Positions 2,955-29,533 of a DNA stretch of 64,000 nucleotides are shown one piece after another; within the stretch, counting starts at the first letter, position 1; every line of letters starts with the position of its first letter. The stretch covers positions 3 to 64,002 of the forward strand of contig NZ_JAEUMO010000128.1 of assembly GCF_016793285.1 (NCBI RefSeq). Direction: 5' to 3'. The notes below the pieces were generated by a model, which saw only the letters and a program-made list of their open reading frames with translations, did not search any database and had not been told where the DNA came from. Source of the DNA: Phenylobacterium sp. (GTDB taxonomy: Bacteria > Pseudomonadota > Alphaproteobacteria > Caulobacterales > Caulobacteraceae). Position numbers and translations under genes: made by a program.

Positions 2955-2970
2955 CTCGTGCTCCTCGCGC

Positions 2971-4092: not shown

Positions 4093-4213
4093 GGAATGCT
4101 CCGTAGCTCGCCGCGCAGTTGAACCCGGTGCCGCCACGGCAGGGAAGCGCGTGATTTCGCTGGGACGCGGGGCGCCCGCACGGCAAGCTCGGCGGCCTCG
4201 AGGGAGCTGTGAG

Positions 4214-9565: not shown

Positions 9566-10168
9566 GGCGTCGTCACTACGCCAGGTAGAGTAGAGCTTTC
9601 GGGCCGCCCCCGTGGCCCGGAGCTCCCCCGACGGAGTGCCCCGGGCCGATCCACACCGAGTCAAAAAAGGGGGGTGCTTCGGTGCGAACGACGAATCGAT
9701 AGCACAACCTACGGCAGCGCCAGCATAAAAAGTCGGCCTCCCGACGGACTCGTGTGGACGACCCGGTAACAAACGCGGCGCGCCGAGGTCCTTCGGCGGC
9801 CGTCGGCGGCCGGGATTCGCAGGGCCGCCGGCATCCGGCGCCTGCGGGGTCGCGCCTGAGGATCCCCCGCGGCCGCGCGTAGGACTTTGGTCGTAGGACT
9901 TCCGTCCCATACCGGCGTGCGGCGCCCGGTGCTACCGCTCACGCTGCGCCGCGCGCGGCCCGGCGGGGGTGGACGAGTGCCGAGCTTTCAGCCTGCAGAG
10001 CCGCGAGCGACCCGCCGTCGGGCGCGCCTTGCACGGCGCGGCCGCGTGCAAAGCCGCCCGCCTCGCGGCATCGGCGCGAATCCACGTCGCAAAATACCTG
10101 TGGGTGTGCTTTCGATTGACGATCCGCGCTCAGGGGCGGGCCGGTTACTTGGCGCTGGGCGGCAAGAC

Positions 10169-11875
10169 GTGACAGGTCGGGTGTTGAAACTGGTCGGCCA
10201 GGCGCTTCTGGCCGCCTGGGTCTGGGTTGGGCCGGACCTCGCGATGGCGCAGGTTTCGCCCCCTGCCCGCGGCGGCGCCGTCGCGCCCAGCCGCCAGGAC
10301 CTGAACCCCGAGGCCCGCCGCGGCGCGCGGCCGCCGTCGCGGGACTCCGACCTCTTCTCCGCGCCGGCCCCGCTGCCCTGCCCGCTCGCGAGTTCGGCGC
10401 TGACGTTCCGTCTGCAGGGCGTCGACGTGGTCGGCAGCTCCATCGCGCCCGAGGATGCGCGCGCGGCCTATGCCCGCCTGGTCGGGACGGAGATCCCGGT
10501 GGCCAGGATCTGCGAGATCCGCGACCGGCTCTCGCTGATCCTGTTCCGCAAGGGCCGGCTGGCCCGCGTCGAGATCCCCGAGCAGACGATCTCGGGCGGC
10601 CGGCTGCGGATCGAGGTCACCGAGGCGCGCATCGTCGCCGTCCGCGTCCGCGGCGACATCGGCCCAGCCCAGGACCGCGTCGAGGCCTACCTGGACAAGC
10701 TGCGCGGCATGACCCCCTTCGATCTCGACACCGCCCAGCGCTACCTGCTGCTGGCCAACGACGTGCCGCGGGTGCGCGTCTCGGCGGCGCTGCGGCCTTC
10801 GGCCGAGGGCCAGGGCGCGATCGACCTGGAGGTCCAGTTGTCGCGCGACCCGGCGAACTACCTGGTCGCCGGCCAGAACACCGGCTCGGAGTCGCTGGGC
10901 CCCTGGAGCGTGCTCGGCCGCGCCGACTTCAACGCCTACACCCGGTACGGCGAGCGCACGACGCTGATCGCCTACCGCACCGTCACCGACAACGAACAGT
11001 GGATCGCCCAGGTCGTCGAGGAGGCGCGCGTCGGGTCCAGCGGCCTCTCGGGCCGCGTGTCCATGGCCTACGGCCGGTCCCGCCCCGGTGGAGGGCTGGC
11101 GGAACTGAAATTGCAGGGCGTGTCCTTCGTTGGGACAGCCGAGGCGCGCTATCCGTTGATCAGGCTTCGCCGCTACAGCGTCTATGCCTCGGCGGGCGTG
11201 GACGTCGTGAGCCAGAAGACGTCGTTCCCCGGCGGCGACGTGCTGGCCGACGACCAGTTGCGCGTGGCCTGGGCGCGGCTGAGCGGCGAGTTCACCCACG
11301 GCCTCGGCCCCCGGCTGGGCATGGCCGCCAACGGCAGCCTCGAGACCCGCAAGGGCTTTTCCGCGCTGGGCGGCAGCAAGGCCGGCGACCAGGGCCTGTC
11401 GCGCATCCAGGGCCTGCCCGACGCCTGGCTGGTCCGCGCCGAGGGCGAGGGCCACCTCGTTCACCGCTGGTTCGACCTGGGCGTCCGCACCCAGGCGCAA
11501 TGGGCCGACAAGCCGACGCTGGCCTACGAGGAACTGGCGGTCGGGGATCTCACGATCGGACGCGGCTACGAGCCGGCCGTCCTCTCCGGCGACCGTGCCG
11601 TGAGCGGGGAGGTGAAGCTTCAGGTCCGTCCCCAGCGTATCGTAAACGGGGTCACGCTTTCGCCCTTCGCCTTTGCGGACGCGAGCTACATCAAGAACCT
11701 GGACGTAGGATCGGAGAAGCGCGTGCTGCGCTCGGCCGGCGCCGGCCTCGAGGCCCGGCTGCCGTATGGCGTGCGCGCTCAGGTCGAGTGGGCGCGCCCC
11801 TTCGACAAGCCGTTCCCGAACGCGCCGAACAAGCCTGCCGACCGGATCCTCTTCCAGTTGCTGGTGGCGGGCTAG
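10169..11875 (+). CDS. two-partner secretion outer-membrane transporter (TpsB; ShlB/FhaC/HecB family)
   Basis: This lies in ORF 9887..11875. The Arg-rich 5' extension is discarded. A signal-like segment (LKLVGQALLAAWVWVGPDLAMA) is followed by a POTRA-like segment (LTFRLQGVDVVGSS...GRLRIEVTEARIVAVRVRGD) and a long beta-barrel-like C-terminal half. The start (GTG 10169, GTG 10181 or TTG 10184) is uncertain. The stop lies 3 nt before the tpsA ATG. Confidence 0.85.
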   Translation: MTGRVLKLVGQALLAAWVWVGPDLAMAQVSPPARGGAVAPSRQDLNPEARRGARPPSRDSDLFSAPAPLPCPLASSALTFRLQGVDVVGSSIAPEDARAAYARLVGTEIPVARICEIRDRLSLILFRKGRLARVEIPEQTISGGRLRIEVTEARIVAVRVRGDIGPAQDRVEAYLDKLRGMTPFDLDTAQRYLLLANDVPRVRVSAALRPSAEGQGAIDLEVQLSRDPANYLVAGQNTGSESLGPWSVLGRADFNAYTRYGERTTLIAYRTVTDNEQWIAQVVEEARVGSSGLSGRVSMAYGRSRPGGGLAELKLQGVSFVGTAEARYPLIRLRRYSVYASAGVDVVSQKTSFPGGDVLADDQLRVAWARLSGEFTHGLGPRLGMAANGSLETRKGFSALGGSKAGDQGLSRIQGLPDAWLVRAEGEGHLVHRWFDLGVRTQAQWADKPTLAYEELAVGDLTIGRGYEPAVLSGDRAVSGEVKLQVRPQRIVNGVTLSPFAFADASYIKNLDVGSEKRVLRSAGAGLEARLPYGVRAQVEWARPFDKPFPNAPNKPADRILFQLLVAG

Positions 11876-11878
11876 CCG

Positions 11879-14800
11879 ATGACCGCGCGCGCCATCGCCT
11901 CCGCCGACCGCAGCCGCCGGGCGCGCCTCCTCGGCGGCTCGGCCCTGGGCGGCGCAGCAGCCCTGCTGCTGGCGGCGACGGCGCAGGCCCAGACGCTGCC
12001 GACGATCCCCGACGCCTCGGCGATCACGGTGGCCACGGGCGGGACGCAGCCCACGATCACGGCGCCCGACGCCAACAGCCTCGACGTCGACCTGAAGGCG
12101 ACCCGCACGGTCATCAACTGGGACAGCTTCCACGTCAGCGCCGCCGACAAGGTGACGTTCCACTTCGGCGCGACCTCGGACATCGTGCTCAACAAGTCGC
12201 CGACCCAGGTGAAGGTGGACGCGGGCGGCCAGGTGGCTGGCCTCGTCGGCGCCGATCCCGGCGGCGCCATCTGGTTCTACTCGCCGCAGGGCGTGGTGAT
12301 CTCGCCCGGCGCGGTGATGAGCGCCGGCAACTTCGTCTTCGCGCGCGGCGACGCCATCGTCGACATGGCGTTCGTCGACGCGGCCGCCCCGCTCTCGGTG
12401 CTGCGCAGCGCGTCGGACTCGCTGATCAGGATCGACACCATCACCTCGGCGACGAGCGCCTCGATCAACGACGAAGGCGAACTGGTGCTGAGCGCCACGG
12501 CCGGCGACCTGGCCGCCGAGACCGTGCTCGCCGCCAAGGGCGCGACGGTCACCACCGCCGCGGGCGGGATCAACATCGGCGAGGTGACCGCTGGCGAGAT
12601 GGCCAGCGTCACCGCGACCGGCGGCGACATCGCCCTGACCTCGCTGAACGGCGGAACGGGCGCCGGCGCCTCGGGCGGGGCCGTCACCGTGGCCTCGGCG
12701 TCGGCCAGCGGCGCAGGGGCCGACATCCAGATCACCGGCCTGACCAGCGCCAGCCTCGGCAGCGGCGCGGCCGGGCGGGACATCAAGGTCGCCGGTCCGG
12801 ACGCCAGCCTGGGTTCGGGCGCGGCGGGGCGCGATGCGTTCGTCACCGCGACCACCGGCGCGGCCACCGTGACGGGCTCGGTCTCGGCCGGCGACGACAT
12901 CGAGGTGACCGCCACGGCGGGCTCTGTCGTCGCGGGTAGCGGCAGCCTGACGTCCACGGGCGCCGGCGCGGACGGCGGCGAGGCGCATGTGCTGGCGCGC
13001 TCCACCGCCGGCAACGTCACGGTCGGCTCGGCCGCGACGCAGGGAACCGCGCCCGGCGCCACGGGCGACGTCACCGTCGACGCGGCGGCCGGGACCTCGA
13101 TTCTGACTGCGGGCGCCTCGACCCGGGACATCGCGGTGACCGGCGTGACGGCCACCCTGGGCTCCGGGGCGGCCGGCGGCGACGTGACCGTCACGGCCTC
13201 GGGCACGGCCAACGTCACGGGCGCGGTCTCGGCGGGCGACGACATCGAGATCACCGCGAACGGCGGCTCGGTGAACGCGTCGGGGGCCTCGCTCACCTCC
13301 ACGGGCGCCAACGCCGACAGCGACGCCCACGTCACGGTCCGCTCGCTCAGCGGTGCGGCGAACGTCGGCTTCGCGGCCACGCAGGGGACGGGCGGCGCGC
13401 GCGGCGACGTCCGCGTCGAGGCCACCAGCACCGCGACGCTGAGCGACGGCGGCGCGTCGCAGGACATCTTCGTGCTGGGTCCCTCGGCGGTCCTGGGCTC
13501 CGCCACCGCCAGCCGCAGCGTCTTCGTCACCGGCACGACCGGCAACGCCAGCGTGACAGGCGCGGTCACCGCCGGCGACGACATCGAGGTCACCACCACC
13601 GCGGGCTCGGTCAACGCCGCAGGCGGCACGCTGACCGCGACGGGCGCCGGCGCGAGCGACGACGCGCACATCCTGGCGAAGTCCGTGAGCGGCGCGGTCA
13701 ACGTAGGGTCCGCGACCACCCAGGGGACGGGCTCCAGGGCCGGCGACGTCATCCTCGAGAGCCCGACGGCCGCGAGCCTGGGCTCCGGCGGCTCGTCGCG
13801 CGACATCAGGATCTCGGGCCAGTCGGCGAGCCTCGGCTCGGCCGACGCGGCGCGCGACATCTTCGTCACCGCCACCAGCGGCAACGCCAGCGTCACCGGC
13901 GCGGTCACGGCCGGCGACGACATCGAGGTCACCGCCGGCTCGGGCTCGGTCACCGCCGCCGGCGGCAGCCTGACCTCCACCGGCGTCGGGGCCGGCGACG
14001 ACGCCCATGTGCTCGCCAGGTCGACCGGCGGCTTCGTGGATGTCGGCTCGGCGGCGACGCAGGGGACCGGCGCGGCGCTGGGCGACGTCACCGTCGACGC
14101 CGCCACCACCGCGACGCTGGGCTCGGGCGCCGCCTCGCGCGACGTCAACGTCCTGGGCCCCGCCGCGTCCCTCGGCGGGGGCTCGGCCGGACGGCACGTC
14201 TTCGTCACCGCCACCACCGGCAACGCCGCCGTCACCGGCTCGGTCACGGCAGGCAACGACATCGAAGTGACCTCCGGCGCCGGCGATGTCACCGCCGCGG
14301 GCGGCAGCCTGACCTCCACCGGCGTCGGGGCGGGCGATGACGCCCACGTCCTGGCCAGGTCCGCGAGCGGCGCCGTGATCGTCGGCGCGGCGGCCACCCA
14401 GGGGACCGGCGCGGCGCTCGGCGACGTGACGATCGAGAGCACGACGACGGCGACCCTGGGCTCGGGCGCCTCGTCCCGCGACATCAAGGTCACCGCCCCG
14501 ACCGCCAGCCTGGGCTCCGCCAACGCGGCGCGGGACGTGTTCGTCACCGCGACCTCCGGGACGGCCAGCGTCACGGGCGCGGTGACGGCCGGCGACGACA
14601 TCGAGATCACCGCGACCACGGGCGCGGTCACCGCCGGCGGCGGCAGCCTGACGTCGACCGGCGTCGGGGCGAGCGACGACGCCCACGTCCTGGCGAAGTC
14701 CGCGAGCGGCGCGGTCACAGTGGGCTCGGCGACCACTCAGGGAAGCGGCGCGGCGCTCGGCGACGTCACCGTGGACGCAGCGACCACCGCGACCGTCACC

Positions 14801-17800
14801 GGCACGTTGCGCTCGACGCAGGACGTCGTCGTCCAGGCGGCCGGCCAGGTGCAGGCCGCGGCGTCCACGATGATCGCGGGCCGCGACGCCGCGGTCCGCA
14901 GCGCCAACGCCAGCGTGGCCGTCGGCACGATCCGCGCCGGCGACGACATCGCGCTCCGGGCGCTCAACGGCTCGATCATGGGCGGCGGCGACCTGCGCGC
15001 CGGCACGACGCAGGGGACCAGCGACCCGTCCGGGGCGGCCGACACCCTGGCGGGCGCGACGCTCGCCGGGCACGACATCGACATCCGGGCCCCGGCGGTC
15101 ACCGTCACCGGCGACGTGGCCGCGGGGCGCACGGCCGGCGACGGCGAGAGCCTGGACCCGGTCCAACTGGACTCCGACGTCTTCGTCACCGTCACCGCCG
15201 CCGACCCCTCGCCGGCGGTCGCGGCGCTGCGGCTCTCGACGGGCAACAACAGCGCCGTCTCCGCCCACCGCGACATCGTGCTGACGAGCGAGGGCGCGGT
15301 CGCCGCGACGCTGCAGACCGGCGACGTGTTCGCCGGCCGCGACGTGGCCGTCCACGCGCCCAACGGCGCCATCTCGATGCGCTCGGCCAGGGCCGGCGAC
15401 GACGTCGTGCTGCGCGCGCCGAACGGCATGGTCGAGGTGATCGGCGACGTACAGGCCGGCCGCGACCTGGCGGGCCAGCCCACCACCGACGCCAACGGCG
15501 CCGGCGACGACCTCAACACCGCCCTGCCCTTCGTGGACTTCGACGGCAACCTGGGCACGGTGTTCAAGGTCGTCGGCTTCGACGTGAGCATCACCGGCCA
15601 GGCCGTGCGCATCACCGGTACGACGGTCGCGGGCCGCCAGCCCAGCACCGACGATCCGGACACCGCCGGCGCCGTCGACAACTCGACGTCGGACGTGCGG
15701 ATCGAGACGCGGACGCCGATGACGCCGGTCATCGGCCTCGCGCCCAGCATCGAGCTGGGCGGCGTCATCGCCACGCGCGACATCCAGATCGACTCGGCGA
15801 AGGCGGTGACCGCCGGCGACCTCAAGGCCGGCCGCGACATCGCGATCCTCGGGCGCGGCGGCGTGACCCCCGGCGCGGCGCCCAACGACCACAGCGGCTC
15901 GGGCGTGACCCTCGGCTCGGCGCGCGCGGGCGACGACGTGCTGGCCTTCAGCGTCTATGGCCGCACCAGTATCGTGGGCGGCGCGACCTCCGGCTCGCCG
16001 TTCCCGCGCCTGCCGGTGAACCTCGACCGCGTGACCGACGGCGCGACCGAAGCGGCCGACCAGCTCGCCATCTACCTGCATTACCTGAACCTCGACGAAG
16101 AGAGCGCGCCGCTGCTGGCGCAAGGCGCCCTGCTGCGTCTCGTGGGCCAGGGCGTCACCGTGGGCGGTCCGCTCACGGCGATGGGCGCGACCTCGGACGT
16201 CCGCATCCGCTCGACCCTCGACATCGACGTGAGCGGCGCCACCCACGCCGGGCGCTGGGCGATGTTCTCCACCGATGCGGGCGGCGGCGCGCTGAAGGTC
16301 GGCGCGGTGACGGCCGCGCGCGATGTCCTCCTCGACGGCGCGACCGGCGTCGAGGCCACCGGAACCCTCACCTCCAGCGGCAGCGACGTGGCCGTGCGCT
16401 CGCGCGGCGGCGGTCAGGTGAAGCTCGCCGGGATCTCGGCGGGCGACGACATCGTGGTGCGCACGGCCGGCGCGGTGATCGTCGATGGCGCTGTCGGCGC
16501 CGGCGGCGCGGGCGACAGCACGGGCCTGGGCGACGACCTGCGGATCAGCGACGGGGCGGTCACGCTCGAGGGTGTGACCTTCGACCTGACCGGCCACGAC
16601 ATCGACATCACCGCCGCCTCGGTGACGACCACCGGCTCGATGAGCGCCTTGGGCGGCAGCTCCGACGTGCGGATCCAGTCCACGGGCGTCCTCAACCTCG
16701 GGGACCTGGGCGCCGGGCGCGACGTGCTGGTGGACGGCGCGACGACGGTCTCGACCGGCGTGCTGACCGCCGGCCGCGACGTGGGCGTCCGCTCGACCGG
16801 CGCGAACAGCGCCGTCACCGTCGGCGGCGCCGCCGCCGGCGACGACGTGGTCATCCGCGCCGGCGGCGCGATCAACGTCACCGGCCCGCTGGGCAACGGC
16901 GCCGGCAGCGACTCCGCCGACGCGGACCAGGCCGGCGACCTGATGTTCGCCGTCGCGAAGTCCAGACTCGGGGGCGACTTCGACCTTGCGGGTCGGAACG
17001 TCGATGTCCGCTCCAGCGGCGGCGCGATCCTGGCCACCGGCGCCGTGGACGCCGCCGACGACGCGCGCTTCCAGACCGGGAGCGCCGGCTCGGTGAAGGT
17101 CGGGGCGGTGACCGCCGGCCGCGACGTGCTGCTCGACGGAGCGGGCGTGGAAGCCACCGACACGCTCACCTCCATTGGCGGCGACGTGGCGGTGCGCAGC
17201 CGCAATGGGGGCCAGGTCAGGCTGGCGGGCGTCCTGGCCGGCGACGACCTGGTCGTGCGCACATCCGGCGCCGTGACCCTCGGCGGCGCCGTCGCGACCG
17301 GAGGCGGGGCCGACGCCGCGGGCCTGGGCGACACCCTGCTGGCGCTGGAAGGCGCCATCGTCCTCGAAGGCCAGAGCTTCGACCTGACGGGCGCCGACAT
17401 CGACATCGCCGCCGGCTCGGTCACCGCCGCCGCCCTGCTCCGGGCCAACGGGTCCGCGTCGGACGCGCGCATCCGGGCGGGCGGCGCCGCCAGCCTCGCC
17501 AACGTCACCGCCGGCCGAGACGTGCTCGTCGACGGCGGCGCGGCGATCACGACCGGCGTGCTGACGGCGGCCCGCGACGTGGGCGTGCGCTCGACCGGCG
17601 ACGGCGCAATGGTGACGGTCGGCTCCGCCGTCGCCGGCGACGACGTCGTGGTCCGCGCCAGGGGCGCCATCCGCGTCACGGGCGCCCTCACGGCCGGCGC
17701 CGGAGCGGACTCCGCCGACACCGACCAGGCCGGCGATCTCATGTTCGGCGTCGCCAGGACACGGCTCGCCGGCGACTTCGACCTGACCGGCGGCAACGTC

Positions 17801-20800
17801 GACCTCCGCTCGGGCGCGGGCTCGATCGACGTCAGCGGCGCGGTGACGGCCGCCACCGACGCCCGTTTCCAGACCGAGGGAGCCGCCGGCGCCGGCGTGA
17901 AGGTCGGCAACGTCACCGCCGGCCGCGACGTCCTGCTGGACGGCAGCGCCGCGTCCGGCTCCAGCGGCGTGGAGTCCACCGGCACGCTGATGGCGACGAC
18001 CGGCGACGTCGCCGTCCGCGCCCGCAACGGCAGCAACATCCGCCTGAAGGCCGTCACCGCCGGCGACGACGTGGCCATGCGCACCACCGGCGCCCTCACG
18101 ACCGAGGGCACGGTCTCGACCCTCGGCGCCGCCTCGACCCTCGGCGTCGCCGACCGGCTCACCGACGCGGCCGAAGCCGGCCGGCTGCAGGTGGGCGGCG
18201 TGGCGTTCGACCTCGCCAGCTCCGACATCGACGTGGTGGGCGGCCAGGTGAACATCTTCCGCAGCGCCGCCCGGGGCAGCGCGCGCGTCAAGGCCGGCGC
18301 CGTCGCGATGAACGGCGGCGCCGCGGTCGGCATCGACATCCTGATCGACAGCGAAATCTCGCTGACCGTGGGCGATCTCACGGCCGCGGGCGACATCGCG
18401 CTGCGCTCGCGCAGCGGCAGCCTGACGGTGGGGAGCCTCGTCGCCGGCGACGACATCGTCCTGCGCGGCGCGACGGGCGTGACCGCCGTCTCGCTGAAGT
18501 CCGGCGGCCTGGAGCGCATCGGCGTCGGCGACCAGATGTACCTCTCCGATCCCACCCTGCTGGGCGGCGAACTCAGCCTGATGGGCGGGACGATCGACGT
18601 GCGGTCGGGCGGCGGCGCGATCTCGATCGGCTCGGCCGATTCGGCGGGCGACGTGCGGGTGCAGGCGGCGAGCGGCGACGTGACCCTTTCGGGCCTGATC
18701 GTCGCCGGCCGGGACATCTTCGCGGACGGCGGCTCGGTGAACGCGACCGGCAGCCTCACCGCGGGCGGCGACGTGGCGCTCTACGCGCGGACCGGCCTGG
18801 TCAGCGTCGGATCCGTCACGGCCGGCGACGATCTGGTGATCCGGGCCGCAGGCGACGTGACCACGACGGGCGAACTGAAGTCGGGCCAGGGCGCCGACGT
18901 GGAGGGGCTCGCAGATCGCCTCGTCACCCTCACCGGCCCGACGTCGATCTTCGGCGTGGAGACCACCGCCGCGGGCGGCGTCATCGACATCAGCGGCGCG
19001 AACATCCGCCTGGGCGGTGTCATCAATGCCGCCGGCGAGAGCGCCCACCTGCGCCTGAAGTCCAGCGGCGTGACCACCCTGGGCGACGCGACCCTGACCG
19101 GCGACATCGCCATCGACTCCGTCGGCGACGTGACCGCCGGGGCTCTGACCGCCGGCCGCGACCTGGCGGTGCGTTCGTCGGACGGGAGCGTCGCGCTTGC
19201 CTCCGGCGCGGCAGGCGACGACATCGTGCTGCGCGCGGCGCGCTCGATCACCGTGACCGGCGCGCTCAGCGTGGGCCAGGGCGCCGACGGCCAGGGCTTC
19301 GGCGACGTGCTCTTCGACCTCGCGCGGACCAACCTCGGCGGCGACTTCGCGCTGGGCGGCCGGAACATCGACATCCTCTCGGCCTCGGGCGACGTGACGG
19401 CCGGCGCGATCACCGCGCCCGACGACATCCGCATCCAGGCGGCGAACGGCCGGGTAACCGCCGCCGATGTCGACGCCGGCCGCGACGTTCTGCTGGACGG
19501 CGGCGGCGTCAGCGCCGGCGCGGTGCAGGCCGGCGGCGACCTCGCCGTCCGCGCCACGAACGGCGCGCTGACCCTGGGCTCGGCGCGGGCCGGCGACGAC
19601 CTGGTCGTCCGCGCGCGAGGCGACATCACCGTCACCGGCGCGCTCACCGCCGGCGGCGGCGCGAACGGCGCCGGCGCGGGGGACCGCCTCGCGGCCATGG
19701 ACGGCGAGGCGACCGACCTCGGCGGGGCCAACATCGACATCCGGTCCGCGACGGGCGGCGTCTCGGCGCAGGGCTCGCTCACTGCGGCGGACGACATCCG
19801 CCTGCGCGCCGCCGGCGCCGTCAGCAACACCGGCCGGGTCGAGGCGGGCCGGGACGTGCACCTCCTGGCCGCCAGCGTCGCCATCGGCGGCGAACTGCGC
19901 GCCGGCCGCGACGCCGTCCTCGACTCCACCGGCGCCGTGGCGATCACCGGCCGGGTCGCGGCGGGCCGCGACGCGCTGCTGCGGGCCGAAGGCGATGTCG
20001 CCGCCGCCGGCGAGGTCGAAGCGGGCCGCGACGTCATGCTGGACGGCGCCTCGGTCAGCGCCGGCACGGTGCGCGCCGGCCGCGACGTGGCCGCGCGCGG
20101 GCGCACCGGCTCGCTGACGCTGGGTTCGATCGGCGCGGGCGACGATGTGGTGCTGCGCGCCGCGCAAGGGATCACCGTCACCGGCCAGGTCACGGCGCAG
20201 GGCGGCGCCGACGGCGAGGGCGTGGCCGACGCGCTGTTCGCGGCCGAGCGCACGACGCTGGGCGGCGACTTCGACCTCGCCGGCGCCAACGTCGACATCC
20301 GCGGCGGCGCCATCAACGTCACGGGTTCCGCCCTCGCGGGCCGTGACGCCCGTTTCCAGACGAGGGGCGACGGCGCGCTCAGCCTGAACGCAGTCACCGC
20401 GGGCGGCGACATCTTGGCCGACGGCCGCTCGGTCACCGCCACAGGCCAGCTCTCCGCCGGCCGCGACGTGGCGGTCCGGGCCCGCGCCGGCGGCGTGGAC
20501 CTGGCCTCGGTCACCGCCGGCGACGACATCGCCATCCGCGCTGCGGGAGCCGTGCGGGCGTCCGGCGCGCTGACGTCCGGCGCCGGCGCCAACGCCGATG
20601 GGGCCGCCGACCGCCTGATCTCGGCCGGCGAGGGCGGCGCGATCATGCGCCTCGTCGATCCGCTGGCCACGACCGCGGTCGTCCAGGGCTTCACGCTCGC
20701 GGCCGGCGATATCGACATCCGGAGCGGCGAGGCGATCTCGCTCGCCGGCAGCGTCGGCGCGGCCAACATCCGGCTGCAGGCCGCAACGAAGATCACCCTG

Positions 20801-21904
20801 GCCTCGGCCACCGCCGCGGAGTCGATCTTCACCCGCGCCGCCGACGTCTCGCTGGGCGGCGCGTGGCGGGCCCAGAGGGCGCGGATCGAAGTCACCGCCG
20901 CCAGCCTGAACCTCGGCGAAGGCGCCACCGGCACGGGCGGGGTCACCCTCTCCAGCGAACAGATCGGCCGCATCGACGCGCCGGTCGTACAGATCTTCCT
21001 GGGCGACACCTCCGGCCCGGCGCGGGGCGGCAATATCTCGATCGGCGCGCTGGCTGTCGATACCGCCAAGATCCGCACCTCGCTGGAACTCTATGCGAGC
21101 AGCGCCTCCGACGTCGTCATCACCGGCGCCTTCGCACCCGGCAGCACGGCGACCAACACCACGATGCTGCGCATCGGCGCCGCCGACGCGGCGGGCAACT
21201 GGACGCCGCGCTCGATCCGCGTGATCGCCAACAGCGGCGGCTCGATCGGCTCGGCCCTGACCACCGGCGGGCGCACGTTCACCGACGTGCGCGCCTTCAA
21301 CGTCGTCGAGCTGAACGCCAGGGCCGACATCCTGATGGGGTATCAGGACTTCATCGACCGCATCCTGACGACGTCGGCCGCCAGCGTGCCGGGCGCGGTC
21401 AAGGGCATCATCGCGCCGCAGACCACCAGCGGCCCGCGCATCCTGCTGACCGCCGGTTCGCTGATCCTGCGCGCCGACGGCAAGGTGGCCCAGCAGGACA
21501 CCGGCGGCCTGCTCGGGACCACGCCGACCGGCCTCTACCTCCTGGGCGGCGGCACGCCGCAGCTCCTGCTGGGCCGCACGTCGGCGACACCGGGCCTGCC
21601 GGAGTTCATCGAACTCAACGGCGCGCTCACCTCGGGCACGACGATCATGGTCGGCGAGAGCGTGTCGCTGCTGGCCGGCATCGCCTTCGACCGCGGCGTC
21701 GCGCCCAGCGGCTACTATCGCCTCAACACCTGCGCGATCCTGCAGCAGGGCAGTTGCATGCCCTCCAACGGCCACCCGACCATCTCGATCCCGCCCGAGC
21801 AGCTCACCGGCCTCACCCTCGAGGACCGCACCGCCGCGGCCGGCGCCGCCGACCCCACGGTGGCCAGCGCGACCAACGAGGAAGTCTGGAAGGACTCCAA
21901 CTGA
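11879..21904 (+). CDS. giant TpsA-type exoprotein (filamentous haemagglutinin-like, 3341 aa)
   Basis: It has a signal peptide (MTARAI...LLLAATAQA/QT). The TPS (haemagglutination-activity) domain signature is TRTVINWDSFHVSAADKVTFHF...DIVLNKSP...AIWFYSPQGVVISPGAVM. About 2700 aa of G/A/D/T/V-rich beta-helix-type repeats follow (AGDDIxVxA, AGRDVxL, GDFDLxGxNxDI). Confidence 0.92.
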   Translation: MTARAIASADRSRRARLLGGSALGGAAALLLAATAQAQTLPTIPDASAITVATGGTQPTITAPDANSLDVDLKATRTVINWDSFHVSAADKVTFHFGATSDIVLNKSPTQVKVDAGGQVAGLVGADPGGAIWFYSPQGVVISPGAVMSAGNFVFARGDAIVDMAFVDAAAPLSVLRSASDSLIRIDTITSATSASINDEGELVLSATAGDLAAETVLAAKGATVTTAAGGINIGEVTAGEMASVTATGGDIALTSLNGGTGAGASGGAVTVASASASGAGADIQITGLTSASLGSGAAGRDIKVAGPDASLGSGAAGRDAFVTATTGAATVTGSVSAGDDIEVTATAGSVVAGSGSLTSTGAGADGGEAHVLARSTAGNVTVGSAATQGTAPGATGDVTVDAAAGTSILTAGASTRDIAVTGVTATLGSGAAGGDVTVTASGTANVTGAVSAGDDIEITANGGSVNASGASLTSTGANADSDAHVTVRSLSGAANVGFAATQGTGGARGDVRVEATSTATLSDGGASQDIFVLGPSAVLGSATASRSVFVTGTTGNASVTGAVTAGDDIEVTTTAGSVNAAGGTLTATGAGASDDAHILAKSVSGAVNVGSATTQGTGSRAGDVILESPTAASLGSGGSSRDIRISGQSASLGSADAARDIFVTATSGNASVTGAVTAGDDIEVTAGSGSVTAAGGSLTSTGVGAGDDAHVLARSTGGFVDVGSAATQGTGAALGDVTVDAATTATLGSGAASRDVNVLGPAASLGGGSAGRHVFVTATTGNAAVTGSVTAGNDIEVTSGAGDVTAAGGSLTSTGVGAGDDAHVLARSASGAVIVGAAATQGTGAALGDVTIESTTTATLGSGASSRDIKVTAPTASLGSANAARDVFVTATSGTASVTGAVTAGDDIEITATTGAVTAGGGSLTSTGVGASDDAHVLAKSASGAVTVGSATTQGSGAALGDVTVDAATTATVTGTLRSTQDVVVQAAGQVQAAASTMIAGRDAAVRSANASVAVGTIRAGDDIALRALNGSIMGGGDLRAGTTQGTSDPSGAADTLAGATLAGHDIDIRAPAVTVTGDVAAGRTAGDGESLDPVQLDSDVFVTVTAADPSPAVAALRLSTGNNSAVSAHRDIVLTSEGAVAATLQTGDVFAGRDVAVHAPNGAISMRSARAGDDVVLRAPNGMVEVIGDVQAGRDLAGQPTTDANGAGDDLNTALPFVDFDGNLGTVFKVVGFDVSITGQAVRITGTTVAGRQPSTDDPDTAGAVDNSTSDVRIETRTPMTPVIGLAPSIELGGVIATRDIQIDSAKAVTAGDLKAGRDIAILGRGGVTPGAAPNDHSGSGVTLGSARAGDDVLAFSVYGRTSIVGGATSGSPFPRLPVNLDRVTDGATEAADQLAIYLHYLNLDEESAPLLAQGALLRLVGQGVTVGGPLTAMGATSDVRIRSTLDIDVSGATHAGRWAMFSTDAGGGALKVGAVTAARDVLLDGATGVEATGTLTSSGSDVAVRSRGGGQVKLAGISAGDDIVVRTAGAVIVDGAVGAGGAGDSTGLGDDLRISDGAVTLEGVTFDLTGHDIDITAASVTTTGSMSALGGSSDVRIQSTGVLNLGDLGAGRDVLVDGATTVSTGVLTAGRDVGVRSTGANSAVTVGGAAAGDDVVIRAGGAINVTGPLGNGAGSDSADADQAGDLMFAVAKSRLGGDFDLAGRNVDVRSSGGAILATGAVDAADDARFQTGSAGSVKVGAVTAGRDVLLDGAGVEATDTLTSIGGDVAVRSRNGGQVRLAGVLAGDDLVVRTSGAVTLGGAVATGGGADAAGLGDTLLALEGAIVLEGQSFDLTGADIDIAAGSVTAAALLRANGSASDARIRAGGAASLANVTAGRDVLVDGGAAITTGVLTAARDVGVRSTGDGAMVTVGSAVAGDDVVVRARGAIRVTGALTAGAGADSADTDQAGDLMFGVARTRLAGDFDLTGGNVDLRSGAGSIDVSGAVTAATDARFQTEGAAGAGVKVGNVTAGRDVLLDGSAASGSSGVESTGTLMATTGDVAVRARNGSNIRLKAVTAGDDVAMRTTGALTTEGTVSTLGAASTLGVADRLTDAAEAGRLQVGGVAFDLASSDIDVVGGQVNIFRSAARGSARVKAGAVAMNGGAAVGIDILIDSEISLTVGDLTAAGDIALRSRSGSLTVGSLVAGDDIVLRGATGVTAVSLKSGGLERIGVGDQMYLSDPTLLGGELSLMGGTIDVRSGGGAISIGSADSAGDVRVQAASGDVTLSGLIVAGRDIFADGGSVNATGSLTAGGDVALYARTGLVSVGSVTAGDDLVIRAAGDVTTTGELKSGQGADVEGLADRLVTLTGPTSIFGVETTAAGGVIDISGANIRLGGVINAAGESAHLRLKSSGVTTLGDATLTGDIAIDSVGDVTAGALTAGRDLAVRSSDGSVALASGAAGDDIVLRAARSITVTGALSVGQGADGQGFGDVLFDLARTNLGGDFALGGRNIDILSASGDVTAGAITAPDDIRIQAANGRVTAADVDAGRDVLLDGGGVSAGAVQAGGDLAVRATNGALTLGSARAGDDLVVRARGDITVTGALTAGGGANGAGAGDRLAAMDGEATDLGGANIDIRSATGGVSAQGSLTAADDIRLRAAGAVSNTGRVEAGRDVHLLAASVAIGGELRAGRDAVLDSTGAVAITGRVAAGRDALLRAEGDVAAAGEVEAGRDVMLDGASVSAGTVRAGRDVAARGRTGSLTLGSIGAGDDVVLRAAQGITVTGQVTAQGGADGEGVADALFAAERTTLGGDFDLAGANVDIRGGAINVTGSALAGRDARFQTRGDGALSLNAVTAGGDILADGRSVTATGQLSAGRDVAVRARAGGVDLASVTAGDDIAIRAAGAVRASGALTSGAGANADGAADRLISAGEGGAIMRLVDPLATTAVVQGFTLAAGDIDIRSGEAISLAGSVGAANIRLQAATKITLASATAAESIFTRAADVSLGGAWRAQRARIEVTAASLNLGEGATGTGGVTLSSEQIGRIDAPVVQIFLGDTSGPARGGNISIGALAVDTAKIRTSLELYASSASDVVITGAFAPGSTATNTTMLRIGAADAAGNWTPRSIRVIANSGGSIGSALTTGGRTFTDVRAFNVVELNARADILMGYQDFIDRILTTSAASVPGAVKGIIAPQTTSGPRILLTAGSLILRADGKVAQQDTGGLLGTTPTGLYLLGGGTPQLLLGRTSATPGLPEFIELNGALTSGTTIMVGESVSLLAGIAFDRGVAPSGYYRLNTCAILQQGSCMPSNGHPTISIPPEQLTGLTLEDRTAAAGAADPTVASATNEEVWKDSN
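12887..14934 (+). repeat. six tandem ~339-nt (113-aa) coding repeats inside tpsA
   Basis: The AGDDIE/AGNDIE codon blocks start at 12887, 13232, 13571, 13910, 14249 and 14588. A related AGDDIA block starts at 14935. The spacings are 345, 339, 339, 339, 339 and 347 nt. Confidence 0.85.
16307..18250 (+). repeat. ~800-nt (about 267-aa) higher-order coding repeats inside tpsA, about 2.4 copies
   Basis: The VTA(A/G)RDVLLDG block starts at 16307, 17108 and 17912 (spacings 801 and 804 nt). Long collinear similarity runs between the copies (e.g. DVAVRSRxGGQVxLAGxxAGDDxVVRTxGAV...FDLTGxDIDI...AGRDVLVDG...DQAGDLMFxVA...). Confidence 0.7.
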
Positions 21905-24900
21905 TGCGGGCGCCGCGCCGCCATCGTCCGGCGTGGCCCGGCGCGCTTGCGGCGCTTGCCTTGGCCGCGTGGGGCGCGGGCGCCCAGGCCGCGCCGCGCG
22001 AGGACTTCGTGCTGGGCCAGAGCGCGCGCAGCGGCGCGGTCTGCACCGCCGTTCGCGACTGGGACGATCCCGTCGCCCAGCGGGCCGGGCAGCGCGCCTG
22101 GCAGGTCATGTGCCGCGGCTGGACCCAGGCGCTGGGCCGCATCTACGCCTTCCACACCGACGGCGCCGCGGCGGGCGAGACCTGGCGCAGGTCGCTGGCC
22201 GATCGCGCGGCCTGCGAACCGGCCATGGACGCGCCCGATCCGGGGCTGAGCCGGACCACGCTCGCGGCCTGCAAGACCCGGCCGCTGGGCGCGAGCTACG
22301 TCGTCTACGAGGCGCGCGACGGCAAGGATGTGATCGTGGCGGAGGGCTACGCCGCCATCGCCGACGTGCTGGGCACGGGCGTCAAGGTGGCGCTGGGCCG
22401 CCAGAGGCCGCCGGCCGCCACCAGCCAGCAGACCGCCAACCTCGGCACGGTGCTGGGCGGCCAGATCGAGAACCTGAACGCCGTCGCCGAGGCCAGCGCC
22501 GCCTCGCCCGCCAAGCAGAAGGAGGCGGCCTACCGCGAGGCCCAGCTCTGGCAGTTCGGCGACGCGGAGTCGCGTTTCAGCCAGTTGGCCGGCGCGTCGC
22601 TGGAGCGGCTCGGCGTGGCCGACCGCGCCGAGGCCTACCTGAACGTGGCGCTGAACGCCTCCAACGCCGGCCGCACCTCCGAGGCCGAGGCCTACTTCAA
22701 GGCTGCCGCGCCCCTGGTCGCCGAGGCCAACAGCGCGCCTCTGCGGGCGCTCTCGCTCAACATGCAGGCCGCTCACGCCCGCAACCAGCGCCGCTTCGAA
22801 GACGCCATCGCGCTGGCCAGGCAGGCCATCGCCCAGCGCGCCAGCATGGCCGAGGTCGCCGCCTCGGGCCTGGTCACCAGCGTCGGCCCCGACGTCCGCC
22901 TGGGCCACGCCGCGGCGCTGGCCCTCAACGCCCAGGGCAAGATGCCCAGCCTGCAACTCTCGGCCGACGAGCGCGAGGCGGTGCGCGACGCCCAGGCCTG
23001 GCAGATCATCGGCACCAGCCAGGAGGCGCTGAAGCAGCGCGCCGCGGCCCGCGCCAGCCTGCAGAGCGCCATCGACATCCTGAACCGGCCACGCGGCGCC
23101 GACGTGCTGGGCTCGGCCGCGCCCTGGCTGGTGGTGCGCCTGCAGGTCGACCTCGCCACCCTGGAACGCGCGGACGGCCAGCCGCAGCTCGCCGTGCGCC
23201 GGCTGGAAGCCGCGCTCGCCACCTACGAGATGCAGGATGCGGGCTCGCTGCCGCTGGGCCGCTTCCTGCTGGAGCTGGCGCGCGCCAAGGCCGGCGCCGG
23301 CATGGAGGACGACGCCCTGGGCGACTTCGAGCGCGCCTTCGGCATCTTCCAGCTCAAGCGCGGCGCGCTCGGCGCCTCGGCCGACGCCGCCGCCGACTAC
23401 TTCGACATCCTCCTCAAGCGCGTGGGGAACGATCCCGTCGCCAAGGCCGCCGACGCCCAGCGGTTCTTCGCCAGCTCCGAGGCGCTGGTGGGTGAATCCA
23501 CCGCCGCCGCTTCGCTCCAGTTCGCCGAGCGCCTGAGTTCGGAAGGCTCGGCCAGCGCCGGCATCTCGCGGGCCCGCGACGCCACGCTGCGCCTCGTCGC
23601 CCAGAAGGACCAGGAGATCCGCCAGCTCCAGCGCGCCGGCGCCTACGCCGGCGAGGCGCGCGCCAAGGCCGACGCCGAGCTCGACGGCCTGCGCAAGCAG
23701 GCCAACGAACTGGAACAGCGCCTGTTCGACGCCAACCCGCGCTACGCCACCGCGCTCTCGACCACCGTCACCAGCAAGGACCTCCAGGCCGAGTTGAAGG
23801 ACGGCGAGGCCTACCTCAAGGTGATGCTGCTCTCGAACCGGGGCTATGGCCTGCTGATCACGCGCGACGCGGTGCGGCCCTACGCCATCGACCTCAGCCG
23901 CCCCGAGGCGCGCAAGCTCGCCGCCAAGCTGCGCGAGCCGATCGCCGAGGTGGGCTCCGGCTTCCTGGGCGAGTGGGACGTGGCCGTCGCGCACCGGCTC
24001 TACAGCGCGCTGCTCGGCCCCATCGAGCCGCAGCTCAGGACCATCGCCAAGCTGATCTACCAGCCGGATCCGACGATGGTGGGCGTGCCAATCGGCGCCC
24101 TCGTCACCGACGACGCCAGCGAGCAGGTGATGGCGAAGAACATCGAACGCGCGCGTCAGGCGAAGAAGGAGGTGTCGTACCGGGGCGTAAGCTGGGTCGC
24201 CGCGCGCCTGGAGACCTCCGTCTCCGTCTCGACCGCGGCCTTCTACAACACCCGCCGCAGCCGCCCGAGCCGCGCGCCGAAGCCGTTCCTCGGGTTCGCC
24301 GACCCGATCATCGCCAAGGACGACGCGGCGTTCCGCAGCGTGATGGCGCCCGACTGGTCGATCGCGCTGGCCGGCGGCGCGGACTTCTGCGCCAGCTTCC
24401 GCAAACAGCTCATGGAGATGCCGCAACTGCCCGAAGCCGCCACCGAGGTCCGCTTCGTGGCCAAGGCCGTCGGCGCGCCCGACAGCGTGATCGTGGGCGC
24501 CGATTTCACCGACGAGCGGGTCAAGAACGGCGGCGGCTTCGAGGGCGCGCTCGACCAGTACCGCGTGCTCTACTTCGCCACCCACGGCCTGCTGCCCCAG
24601 GCCAACGGCTGCCTCCAGCCGGCGCTGGTCACCTCGCAGGGCGGGACCGGCAGCGACTCGCTCCTCGACACCAGCGAGATCCCGCAACTCCAGCTCGACG
24701 CCGACCTGGTGGTGCTGTCGGCCTGCGACACCGGCGCGGGCCTGGAGGACGGCGGCGGCGGCGCGGCCCTGGGCGGCCTCGTCTCGACCTTCACCTACGC
24801 CGGGGCGCGCAACCTGCTGGTCTCGAACTGGGAGGTGGACTCCGCCGCCACCGAGACCCTGATGTCGGCCCTCTTCAACGCCAAGGCCGCCACCCAGGGC

Positions 24901-25044
24901 GAGGCGCTGGCCGCCGCCATGCGCAGCTTCATCGCCCGCGACGACGACTACTCCCACCCCTACTACTGGGCTGCCTTCCTCATCGTCGGCGACGGCGCGC
25001 GGGCGCTGCCGGGGGCCGAGACCGCGCGCGTCGCGTCGAACTGA
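21904..25044 (+). CDS. exported TPR-repeat / CHAT-domain (caspase-haemoglobinase fold) protein, 1046 aa
   Basis: I trimmed ORF 20863..25044 to ATG 21904, which overlaps the tpsA TGA by 1 nt (TGATG). It has a signal peptide ([31 protein letters not shown]), a helical TPR-like middle region, and a C-terminal CHAT signature: [12 protein letters not shown] (His codon 24583-24585), [13 protein letters not shown] (Cys codon 24724-24726) and [14 protein letters not shown]. Confidence 0.88.
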
Positions 25045-25187: not shown

Positions 25188-25322
25188 GTGAAGCGCACTT
25201 TCCAACCCTCTCGCCTGGTGCGTGCGCGCCGTCACGGCTTCCGTCTGCGCATGTCGACGAAGAACGGCCAGAAGATCCTGGCCCGTCGTCGCGCCAAGGG
25301 CCGCAAGCGCCTGAGCGCCTAG
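25188..25322 (+). CDS. rpmH: 50S ribosomal protein L34
   Basis: The GTG start gives (M)[43 protein letters not shown], an unmistakable L34 sequence. Confidence 0.95.
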
Positions 25323-25347
25323 GGCCGGCTTCGGCTAAGGTGTCCGG

Positions 25348-25716
25348 GTGTCGGACGCCGCCCCCTCGATCCAGCGACTGACGAAACGCAGCGAGTTCCT
25401 CGCCTGCGCCCAGGCTCCCTCGTGCGCGAAGGGGGCCGTCGTCGTTCAGGCCCGCCCGCGCGGCGACGAAGACCCGACCGTGCGCGTCGGCTTCACCGCC
25501 ACCAGGCGCATCGGCGGCGCCGTCCAGCGCAACCGCGCCAAGCGGCGCATGCGCGAGGCCGCCCGCGCCGTCCTGCCCGGCCACGCCACGCCCGGCGTCG
25601 ACTATGTGATCATCGCCCGCGGCGGTGTGACCACCCGCCCCTGGGCCCGTTTGCTTGACGATGTGAAAAGCGCGCTGGTAAGGCTCGCCGCCGACCGGCC
25701 GGCGCCCCACATCTGA
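25348..25716 (+). CDS. rnpA: ribonuclease P protein component
   Basis: It lies immediately downstream of rpmH. The basic protein carries the RNR-type motif [24 protein letters not shown]. Confidence 0.9.
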
Positions 25717-25755
25717 CGGGCCCGCCCCATCCCTCGACGGACCCGCGTCTCCCCA

Positions 25756-28390: not shown

Positions 28391-29533
28391 ATGATCGACA
28401 CCGCCGCCCGCCCCGTCTTCGACGAGGAGCTGAACCTGTTCCGCGACCAGGTGCGGAAGTTCTACGACAAGGCGCTGACGCCCAACCTCGACCGCTGGGA
28501 GCAGGAAGGCATCATCGGGCGCGACTTCTGGCTGGCGTGCGGCGAGGCGGGGATCCTCTGCCCCGGCGTGCCGGCCGAGTACGGCGGCCTGGGGCTCGAC
28601 TTCCGCTACAACGCCGTGATCAGCGAGGAACTGTTCTATGCGGGCAGCTCGGCCGGCATCACGCTGCAGAGCGACATCGTCGCGGACTACATCGTCAACT
28701 ACGGCTCCGAGGAGCAGAAGCGGCAGTGGCTGCCGAAGATGGTGTCGGGGGAGGCCATCACCGCCATCGCCATGACCGAGCCCGGCACGGGCTCGGACCT
28801 GCAGGCGGTGCGCACGACCGCGATCCGCGCCGGCAACCACTACGTCGTGAACGGCTCGAAGATCTACATCACCAACGGCCAGAACGCGGACCTGGTGATC
28901 GTGGTGGCCAAGACCGATCCCACCCAGGGCGGCAAGGGCATCTCGCTCATCCTGGTCGAGGCCGACCGCGAGGGCTTCAAGCGCGGCCGCAACCTGGACA
29001 AGATCGGCCAGCACTCGGCCGACACCTCGGAGCTGTTCTTCGAGGATGTGCGCGTGCCGGTGACCAACTGCCTCGGCGAGGAAGGCCGGGGCTTCGCCCA
29101 GCTCATGAACCAGTTGCCACAGGAGCGGCTGGGCATCGCGCTCCAGGCGCAGGCCGCCGCCCAGCGCGCGTTCGACGAGGGCGTGAAGTTCACCAAGGAC
29201 AGGAAGGCGTTCGGCCAGACCGTCTTCGACTTCCAGAACACCCGGTTCACGCTGGCGGGCCTCAAGGCCAGGATGCAGGCGGGCTGGGCGCACCTGGACT
29301 GGGCCATCGCGCGGCACCTGGAGGGCAAGCTGACGGCGGCGGAGGCCTCGGCCGCCAAGCTCTTCCACACCGAGCTGCAGTGGGAGGTCGTCGACGCGGC
29401 CCTGCAACTGCACGGCGGGGCCGGCTACATGAACGAGTATCCGATCGCGCGGCTGTGGCGCGACGCCCGCGTGCAGCGGATCTATGGCGGCACCAGCGAG
29501 ATCATGAAGGAGGTCGTCGCGCGGACGATTTGA
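28391..29533 (+). CDS. acyl-CoA dehydrogenase
   Basis: The 380-aa product is a canonical ACAD with C-terminal RIYGGTSEIMKEVVARTI (catalytic Glu motif). Confidence 0.93.
   Translation: MIDTAARPVFDEELNLFRDQVRKFYDKALTPNLDRWEQEGIIGRDFWLACGEAGILCPGVPAEYGGLGLDFRYNAVISEELFYAGSSAGITLQSDIVADYIVNYGSEEQKRQWLPKMVSGEAITAIAMTEPGTGSDLQAVRTTAIRAGNHYVVNGSKIYITNGQNADLVIVVAKTDPTQGGKGISLILVEADREGFKRGRNLDKIGQHSADTSELFFEDVRVPVTNCLGEEGRGFAQLMNQLPQERLGIALQAQAAAQRAFDEGVKFTKDRKAFGQTVFDFQNTRFTLAGLKARMQAGWAHLDWAIARHLEGKLTAAEASAAKLFHTELQWEVVDAALQLHGGAGYMNEYPIARLWRDARVQRIYGGTSEIMKEVVARTI

Follow-up and report, generated by a model that had tools for sequence, protein, structure and literature searches.

A stretch of 64,000 nucleotides (nt) from Phenylobacterium sp. 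(the window, to whose positions all coordinates refer) carries three co-oriented genes that encode an outer-membrane transporter (TpsB), a giant exoprotein (TpsA), and an exported protein in which a tetratricopeptide repeat (TPR) region precedes a caspase-fold CHAT domain. These genes are one conserved functional unit, found in several hundred genomes of Alphaproteobacteria, and that they are functionally linked is close to certain. Their anatomy, the families of their products, their linkage in relatives, a catalytic His-Cys dyad, and a Cys loop and tail motif at the TpsA C terminus form the observed basis for what follows. By analogy with characterized systems, we tentatively propose that the trio may well be a type Vb two-partner secretion (TPS) system with its own periplasmic cysteine protease, which would act on the tethered tail of TpsA much as LapG acts on its adhesin.

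Three coupled genes and their products

Gene anatomy was read directly from the DNA letters, and the signal peptides of all three proteins were judged by inspection. The features, all on the + strand, are as follows.

10169..11875, + strand: tpsB, Omp85/TpsB-type outer-membrane transporter (POTRA_2 and ShlB Pfam matches)
11879..21904, + strand: tpsA, exoprotein of 3341 amino acids (aa) (open reading frame [ORF] and translation; N-terminal homology to giant ORFs)
11879..11989, + strand: TpsA Sec signal peptide, aa 1-37, ending LLLAATAQA before QT (inspection; kept in close homologues, alignment A3)
11996..12778, + strand: divergent TPS domain of the HMW1/EtpA/HxuA type (family profile A4 against solved TPS domains)
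12775..14770, + strand: tandem array in tpsA of 339-bp (113-aa) repeats, 5.9 copies (Tandem Repeats Finder, phmmer self-matches)
21725..21757, + strand: C-terminal Cys loop NTCAILQQGSC, Cys3285 and Cys3293 (direct reading; recurrence in family giants)
21851..21889, + strand: tail motif DPTVASATNEEVW of TpsA, 4 aa short of the C terminus (family consensus)
21888..21906, + strand: coupling junction, GGAAGGA plus TGATG stop/start overlap (direct reading; recurrence in relatives)
21904..25044, + strand: TPR-CHAT gene, exported protein of 1046 aa (Pfam CHAT, AlphaFold2 model, Foldseek)
21904..21990, + strand: CHAT-protein signal peptide, aa 1-29, ending AQA before AP (inspection)
21991..22398, + strand: family-specific alpha/beta N-domain, aa 30-165 (separate model, predicted local distance difference test [pLDDT] 90.7)
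22471..23793, + strand: helical/TPR solenoid, aa ~190-630 (secondary structure of the AlphaFold2 model)
23806..25008, + strand: CHAT caspase-fold domain, aa ~635-1035 (Pfam match at aa 694-1030)

The tpsB stop codon (TAG, 11873-11875) is followed after a 3-nt spacer by the tpsA ATG at 11879, and the tpsA stop codon (TGA, 21902-21904) has its A in common with the ATG of the CHAT gene at 21904 (TGATG). A Shine-Dalgarno-like GGAAGGA (21888-21894) lies inside the 3' end of tpsA, 9 nt before that ATG. The CHAT gene is translationally coupled to tpsA. This edge-to-edge packing had been described in an earlier note on the same DNA, and every position in it reads from the sequence as it was given there.

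Counted from its putative GTG start codon at 10169, TpsB has 568 aa and begins with a plausible signal peptide (VTGRVLKLVGQALLAAWVWVGPDLAMA, cleaved before Q). Its assignment, also made in the earlier note, holds, with matches above the gathering cut-offs to both Pfam POTRA_2 (PF08479; 4.4e-8, 33.3 bits against a cut-off of 24) and Pfam ShlB (PF03865; 2.9e-6, 27.4 bits against 22.7). Type Vb systems are recognized by a transporter that joins ShlB-type POTRA to an Omp85-type beta-barrel and by adjacent tpsB and tpsA genes on the same strand whose products carry Sec signal peptides. The window's TpsB is such a transporter, and the two genes and their products have this arrangement and, by inspection, these signals.

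The second product is Gly-, Ala-, Thr-, and Val-rich and consists of degenerate repeats over most of its length. It gave no match at E <= 0.01 against Pfam, including PF05860, and TIGR01901 aligned with aa 79-157 at 19.1 bits, under its cut-off of 29.1. The TPS-domain motifs VINWDSFHV, DIVLNK, and IWFYSPQGVVISPGA can be read in it, and the canonical NPNG has become SPQG, which is probably why Pfam misses the domain. We used an iterative hidden Markov model (HMM) seeded with TpsA aa 41-200 to gather family N termini, and the module recurs in 58 giant ORFs adjoining TpsB or CHAT genes. A profile built from 27 of these N termini (A4) matches solved TPS domains over ~240 residues: EtpA (8cpk, 4.7e-33), HxuA (4i84, 3.7e-22), and HMW1 (2odl, 1.9e-21). 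Further, the homologous giant at locus L004 has a precomputed PF05860 match. Judged from its profile relatives, the giant protein is a true TpsA, a standing provable only through the family profile. The earlier note had called it TpsA; the name stands on a TPS domain of the EtpA, HxuA, and HMW1 kind, while the PF05860 search itself gave nothing.

Behind the TPS domain, the 113-aa repeats form an array with 71% matches and a Tandem Repeats Finder score of 1512, and more degenerate repeats follow it. The protein ends in a domain of ~260 aa that is conserved within Caulobacterales only (9 loci). Several long ORFs run antisense to tpsA. The longest, a 3876-aa minus-strand frame at 10145-21775, was rejected as a gene by a third-position GC test and is a shadow ORF; the others are likewise shadows of a repetitive gene with 71% G+C, which is also the G+C content of the window.

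The third protein was modelled with AlphaFold2 from a 37-sequence alignment (pLDDT 78.7, predicted template modelling score 0.68). It matches Pfam CHAT (PF12770) at 1.2e-47 and 163 bits against a cut-off of 24, over profile positions 2-289 of 289. The middle of the protein forms a solenoid whose profile matches kinesin light-chain TPRs at aa 206-315 (6e-8), and Pfam TPR_12 falls just under its cut-off at aa 412-482. In the CHAT domain, the dyad is formed by His894 in FATHG (CAC, 24583-24585) and Cys941 in LSACDTG (TGC, 24724-24726). The CHAT family, the TPR-like middle, and an intact His894/Cys941 dyad had all been read from the letters in the earlier note; the full-length Pfam match, the modelled solenoid with its TPR profile match, and the position of both residues at the CHAT catalytic sites, in the family as well as in the distant consensus, agree with it. 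Sequence searches of the PDB with the CHAT profile and the CHAT domain returned TPR proteins or noise only, so that a structure search was needed. Foldseek places the model closest to DdvA (8rw5, 6.9e-11), followed by Csx29 (1.4e-10) and human separase (3.6e-9).

His, Cys, and the neighbouring Gly of the dyad are invariant in 85/85 family members, which range from 26 to 100% identity. When 26 distant TPR-CHAT proteins are aligned with the family, the Cys is again invariant, the His is at least 90% conserved, and an ATHG/LSAC consensus emerges. Catalysis thus appears to be selected because the dyad is invariant throughout the family, and this conservation argues that the CHAT protein is an active protease under selection.

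Several features of the N terminus bear on where the protein acts. Hydrophobic N termini are found in 12/12 aligned CHAT homologues, and two distant ones (P0046 and P0047) carry lipobox-like LAGC or VAAC sequences. The N-domain behind the signal peptide has cysteines at positions 47, 70, 104, and 123 that are present in 81/85 members, the remaining four being truncated. A search among 1.84 billion representative proteins recovered this domain in 87 clusters, confined to aa ~30-190 of proteins of ~1000-1080 aa or fragments of them; it therefore marks the CHAT family. A fold search returned only borderline neighbours of the PsbP/DcrB/Eag kind (E 6e-3, TM ~0.4), which do not suffice for a functional assignment. 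A periplasmic location, which the earlier note had proposed, is what we infer from the signal peptide, the conserved N-domain cysteines, and the lipobox-like variants in distant homologues.

Linkage among relatives and accessory genes

To follow the trio in other genomes, we surveyed one genome per species across 185,579 species, which yielded 552 relatives of the CHAT protein. The best 80 loci were examined in six-frame ORFs with phmmer and HMMs over 10 kb around the CHAT gene. They come from Caulobacterales (40-82% identity), many Sphingomonadales (~30%), among them isolates of Novosphingobium, Erythrobacter, Sphingomonas, Croceicoccus, and Parerythrobacter, and a few from Methylomonas, Hydrogenophaga, Burkholderiaceae, and Limibaculum. 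Neighbours of the CHAT gene within this distance were as follows.

TpsB: 58/80 loci
TPS-giant: 64/80 loci
TpsB and/or TPS-giant: 68/80 loci
Neither TpsB nor TPS-giant: 12/80 loci

The TpsB homologues match at 1e-40 to 1e-130. In 12/12 of the loci with no TPS neighbour, the CHAT gene lies <4 kb from a contig end on its upstream side. Three gene orders predominate: TpsB-TpsA-CHAT, with or without genes for a CHASE2 cyclase and a protein family that we call p256; CHAT-CHASE2 cyclase-p256-TpsB-TpsA; and CHAT-TpsB-TpsA. The distance between the stop codon of the giant and the start codon of the CHAT gene falls between -4 and +4 nt in 41/53 junctions scored, and in 4/53 an unrelated gene lies upstream of the CHAT gene at +124 to +181 nt. 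Direct CHAT-TpsB adjacency with 4-nt overlaps occurs at several loci (e.g., L021 and L053).

The linkage is old and specific to this family. No TPS neighbour was found in 4/4 control TPR-CHAT genes from outside it, and homologues of the genes that flank the window's trio (rnpA, yidC, and a short-chain dehydrogenase [SDR] gene) occur in no surveyed locus, the flanks differing even in relatives with 80-82% identity. Chance adjacency and plain inherited synteny are ruled out by these differing flanks, the varied gene order, and the TPS-less CHAT genes outside the family. A co-occurrence of CHAT and TPS genes had been mentioned in the earlier note; it proves real, specific, and very strong, at 68/80 loci in the family and 0/4 of the controls. 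The control genes have company of their own: three of the four (L085, L087, and L088; proteins P0058, P0072, and P0069) adjoin a subtilisin (Peptidase_S8) gene, and a gene like those for extracytoplasmic function (ECF) sigma factors lies near two (L086 and L087), directly upstream only in L087, an arrangement that recalls DdvA.

Many clusters hold additional genes. In 35/80 loci (~44%, within L005-L084), from many Sphingomonadales and one metagenome-assembled genome from Burkholderiaceae, the cluster includes a gene for a ~680-aa protein that combines CHASE2 with a class III adenylate/guanylate cyclase (e.g., L026:13055-15097 and L078:3782-5734). One or two exported p256 proteins of ~250 aa are encoded inside the cluster in 34/80 loci, as at L026:15087-15854 and 15858-16625 and at L078:3051-3782, where they adjoin the CHASE2 cyclase. 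They have a signal peptide, two invariant cysteines, and a conserved N terminus (VVRSxGPS...GD.VTVLD), and none of 22 members matched Pfam or the PDB; a supposed likeness to FecR was dropped on this ground. The full cluster, found in ~44% of loci, is a five-gene set of the trio, the CHASE2 cyclase, and p256. This linkage in Sphingomonadales suggests a coupling of the proposed cleavage to cyclic-nucleotide signalling.

Searches of the 64-kb window for homologues of the CHASE2 cyclase, p256, and the Rce1-like and M23 peptidases described below found none, and no surveyed Caulobacterales trio has an adjacent CHASE2 cyclase or p256 gene. The trio is therefore viable in the absence of these two genes.

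Two further arrangements stand apart. In L001, a relative with 40% identity, a gene directly 3' of the trio (L001:13334-14389) encodes a cytoplasmic FHA-domain protein whose C-terminal half resembles class III cyclases, a further cyclase link without CHASE2. In a distant subgroup (L003 and L004, 29-31% identity), the CHAT gene overlaps a gene for a CPBP/Rce1-like intramembrane protease (L003:3527-4360 and L004:10804-11658) whose best NCBIfam models are the C-terminal-sorting proteases MrtS and MrtJ and the myxosortase core, all under cut-off. Behind the protease gene of this subgroup (L004:11645-19850) come an M23 peptidase and type VI secretion-associated genes (VasE, DotU, IcmF, TagF, PP2C, FHA, and Ser/Thr kinase).

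The TpsA tail and its proposed cleavage

Across the family, the TpsA C terminus combines a Cys loop with a short tail motif. Cys3285 and Cys3293 are the sole two cysteines of the 3341-aa window protein, and a tight Cys pair lies 46-200 aa from the C-terminal end in 33/40 complete family giants. In most giants the motif, with the consensus [DE]P[VI]T[SG]G[GSA][ND]xx[LIV][WYF], follows the loop after a variable linker and lies 4-27 residues from the C terminus. A strict regular expression finds it in the last 60 aa of 27/50 giants and 5 times in 1.86 million background residues, a >1000-fold enrichment, and variants judged by eye are present in ~44/50. We regard the loop as a candidate disulfide "stopper" that, as in better-known TpsA proteins, would hold the C terminus in the periplasm, and the motif as a candidate recognition or cleavage element. 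Together they are a plausible target for the proposed protease in the periplasm.

Two side observations concern this region. A second, more distant TPS-domain giant 3' of the CHAT gene at L052:13256-19741 has neither Cys loop nor tail motif and offers a natural negative control for both. Between the loop and the motif of the window's TpsA lies TAAAG (in RTAAAGAAD, window 21827-21841), which resembles the di-alanine LapG site of LapA and CdrA; it is kept only in the two closest relatives (L005 and L006) and may be a coincidence of an Ala-rich proteome.

In the mechanism we favour, TpsB would reside in the outer membrane. Once exported by Sec, TpsA would be recognized by way of its divergent TPS domain, which is of the HMW1/EtpA/HxuA type, and would be threaded outward from N to C terminus. 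A disulfide-bonded Cys3285-Cys3293 loop, ~50 residues from the C terminus, would be unable to pass the TpsB pore, as in HMW1 and HxuA. The filament would thus be tethered, and the 48-residue tail with its DP(x)TxGxNxx(I/V)W motif would stay in the periplasm. Made in step with TpsA through TGATG and exported by Sec, the TPR-CHAT protein would be periplasmic as a disulfide-bonded folded protein, bind the tail by its N-domain or TPR solenoid, and cut it with His894 and Cys941. This cut would decide the fate of the filament, which might stay on the cell, be released, or be cleared when stalled. We infer the tail's periplasmic topology, its binding by the CHAT protein, its cleavage, and the consequence of that cleavage. 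The earlier note had proposed a dedicated periplasmic processing or quality-control protease for this TpsA: the families, the dyad, and the linkage that such a role presupposes are in place, as is a plausible target, while cleavage itself is proposed by analogy with HMW1/HxuA, CdrA/LapG, and FhaB.

Several observations count against this proposal. The tail motif of the window protein (TVASATNEEVW) is degenerate relative to the family consensus. In DdvA, the CHAT dyad was found at rest, and attempts to demonstrate protease activity did not succeed. The frequent CHASE2 cyclase and p256 neighbours could mean that the true substrate is a signalling protein. Finally, at L043:8097-12985 and at L083:8086-12411 a TpsB-CHAT pair occurs with no giant TPS gene closer than 10 kb, and TpsA is therefore maybe not the sole or obligatory partner. 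At L043 the tpsB gene is split over two frames, and the CHAT protein of L083 is shorter (868 aa).

One live alternative, not considered in the earlier note, is that the system signals or that the substrate is not TpsA. Here, the surface filament would be an antenna of a module that signals across the envelope, and the state of the TpsA tail would switch on or off a CHAT protease that cleaves a CHASE2 cyclase, p256, or an unlinked receptor, making TpsA a sensor rather than a substrate and changing cAMP or cGMP output. The cyclase and p256 genes inside roughly two-fifths of the clusters (35/80 and 34/80), the FHA-cyclase gene directly 3' of the L001 trio, and the closeness of the model to DdvA, in which a periplasmic TPR-CHAT region serves as the sensor domain of an anti-sigma factor, all speak for such a circuit. 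However, homologues of CHASE2, cyclase, and p256 are absent from all 64 kb of the window, the surveyed Caulobacterales trios lack CHASE2 cyclase and p256 neighbours as well, and the tail motif and Cys loop are most simply explained as substrate or anchor elements; we consider this alternative unlikely. In another reading, the enzyme could cut at the C-terminal motif and ligate TpsA covalently to the envelope in the manner of a sortase, so that the outcome would be anchoring and not release. Some caspase-fold (clan CD) enzymes do transpeptidate or ligate, among them PorU, GPI8, and legumain-type ligases. The position of a short conserved motif 4-27 residues from the end of most family TpsAs is reminiscent of a sorting signal, and in L003 and L004 the CHAT gene is followed by the CPBP protease whose best models are C-terminal-sorting proteases. 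That match is generic and under threshold, though; there is no known acceptor and no known ligating CHAT-family enzyme, and the motif, unlike known C-terminal sorting signals, is followed by neither a transmembrane helix nor a basic cluster, which together make transpeptidation improbable.

We consider a purely non-proteolytic partnership to be quite improbable as well: the TPR solenoid or N-domain would act as a periplasmic chaperone or dock that keeps TpsA secretion-competent or delivers it to TpsB, with the CHAT domain regulatory or self-processing. A large solenoid (aa ~190-630), an N-domain weakly resembling binding modules of the PsbP/DcrB/Eag type, a translational coupling that would fix stoichiometry, and the lack of a phenotype of the DdvA dyad mutation under the tested conditions are consistent with such a role, but the invariance of His, Cys, and neighbouring Gly in 85/85 members is not readily reconciled with it, and TPS systems generally have no need for a dedicated chaperone (PMC5422565). 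The TpsB-CHAT pairs at L043 and L083 and the overlapping CHAT-TpsB genes (e.g., at L021 and L053) raise the further thought that the CHAT protein is itself TpsB cargo and would act outside the cell as a displayed or secreted protease, perhaps together with TpsA. TPS-CHAT fusions occur in some cyanobacterial proteins. The CHAT protein of this family, however, has no TPS domain, its compact four-Cys alpha/beta N-domain is of the disulfide-bonded folded kind that blocks TpsB pores, and some homologues have lipobox-like signal peptides, leaving this the most far-fetched of the alternatives and very improbable.

Genomic surroundings, known systems, and implications

The trio is set off from its neighbours, which include an SDR gene, a gene for an AMP-binding enzyme, and rpmH. 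A 600-nt gap separates it upstream from the SDR gene, and downstream 143 nt lie between it and rpmH (25188-25322), followed by rnpA and yidC. The rpmH gene (GTG start, 44 aa), rnpA, and yidC lie directly 3' of the operon (window 25188-27558), with a TTGACA-like box at ~25128, and are the gene set usual near dnaA/oriC. No sigma-70 consensus or intrinsic terminator was found in or around the trio, which carries little weight for a high-GC alphaproteobacterium. The region is flanked by three acyl-CoA dehydrogenase genes and an AMP-binding (acyl-CoA ligase-type) gene (window 1695-4239, 6348-7889, and 28391-29533), a beta-lactamase-fold gene (4091-5455), and a Crp-family regulator (29613-30368), an ordinary metabolic context with no sign of mobile elements. 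PADLOC-DB defence models matched none of the three proteins.

Among characterized systems, the closest analogue of the proposed mechanism is the CdrA/CdrB system of Pseudomonas aeruginosa with LapG and LapD. CdrA is a TpsB-tethered TpsA adhesin whose periplasmic tail is cut for release by the cysteine protease LapG (PMC5422565, PMC4694147). A tethered adhesin, a periplasmic tail, and a periplasmic cysteine protease that cuts it would be common to both, and LapD, the inner-membrane nucleotide-signalling protein to which the protease step is tied in that system, would have its counterpart in the CHASE2 cyclase of many relatives. The differences are substantial. LapG is transglutaminase-like (BTLCP), whereas the window protein matches CHAT and TPR_12 only; lapG and lapD lie outside the cdrAB operon, whereas the CHAT gene lies inside the trio; and c-di-GMP is a ligand of LapD, while a cyclic mononucleotide is the product of the CHASE2 protein. 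No GGDEF/EAL (LapD-like) gene turned up among the window genes scanned, a scan that was not exhaustive. What is new relative to CdrA/LapG is an unrelated protease fold and a protease encoded in the operon.

HMW1A/B/C, EtpB/A/C, and HxuC/B/A share with the trio the TPS-domain subtype, the three-gene operon with an accessory protein, and the anchoring loop; in HMW1 and HxuA the C terminus is periplasmic and locked in the TpsB pore by a disulfide loop (PMC5422565). Their third gene encodes a cytoplasmic glycosyltransferase (HMW1C and EtpC) or, in the case of HxuC, a TonB-dependent receptor; in none of them is it a protease gene, and a conserved tail motif behind the loop is not described for them. 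In Bordetella FhaB/FhaC, with SphB1, CtpA, and DegP, the periplasmic C-terminal part of a giant TpsA is likewise processed, and this controls maturation and release (PMC5422565, PMC8263021). The enzymes that process FhaB are serine proteases whose genes lie elsewhere than in the fha locus (PMC5422565), the prodomain measures ~1200 aa as against a tail of ~50 aa in the window's TpsA, and the TPS domain is of another subtype.

The best structural match, DdvA (8rw5), is a periplasmic TPR solenoid plus CHAT domain with a canonical His-Cys dyad, presumably a protease that a signal activates. Unlike the window protein, which is predicted to be soluble, with a cleavable signal peptide, another N-domain, no sigma gene nearby, and a tie to TPS, DdvA is membrane-anchored, with a transmembrane helix, an anti-sigma domain at its N terminus, and an ECF sigma factor as its partner. 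Csx29 of the type III-E CRISPR "Craspase" and eukaryotic separase share the TPR-CHAT architecture and the dyad (Foldseek, 1e-10 to 4e-9) but work in the cytoplasm or nucleus, respond to RNA or to securin/phosphorylation for their activation, and have no link to secretion.

A more ambitious and rather doubtful version of the proposal joins these elements into one envelope-spanning device, in which a disulfide-locked filament, a CHAT cut in the tail motif, and, in many Sphingomonadales, wiring to a CHASE2 cyclase would convert the state of the filament into a cyclic-nucleotide signal or act in the reverse direction. Contact, pulling, damage, or phage attack are filament states that such a CHASE2-wired device might convert. 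No paper that treats a CHAT domain or CHASE2 together with TPS components was found in the full texts of 7.7 million PMC papers and 0.34 million bioRxiv preprints, a scope that excludes subscription-only literature.

If the proposed function is true, the trio would be the first type Vb system whose protease is encoded in its own operon. A 2017 review of TPS places the genes for TpsA maturation proteases outside TPS operons (PMC5422565), in contrast to a CHAT gene that is translationally coupled to tpsA and TPS-linked across alphaproteobacterial orders as well as in some members of the Beta- and Gammaproteobacteria. The trio would be a compact genetic system for the release or maturation of a tethered type Vb filament and a second periplasmic TPR-CHAT example after DdvA, this one soluble and with an obvious candidate substrate. 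The relatives that carry a CHASE2 cyclase may be a lead on what CHASE2 sensors respond to and, were the device real, the filament would be a first candidate input for these domains.

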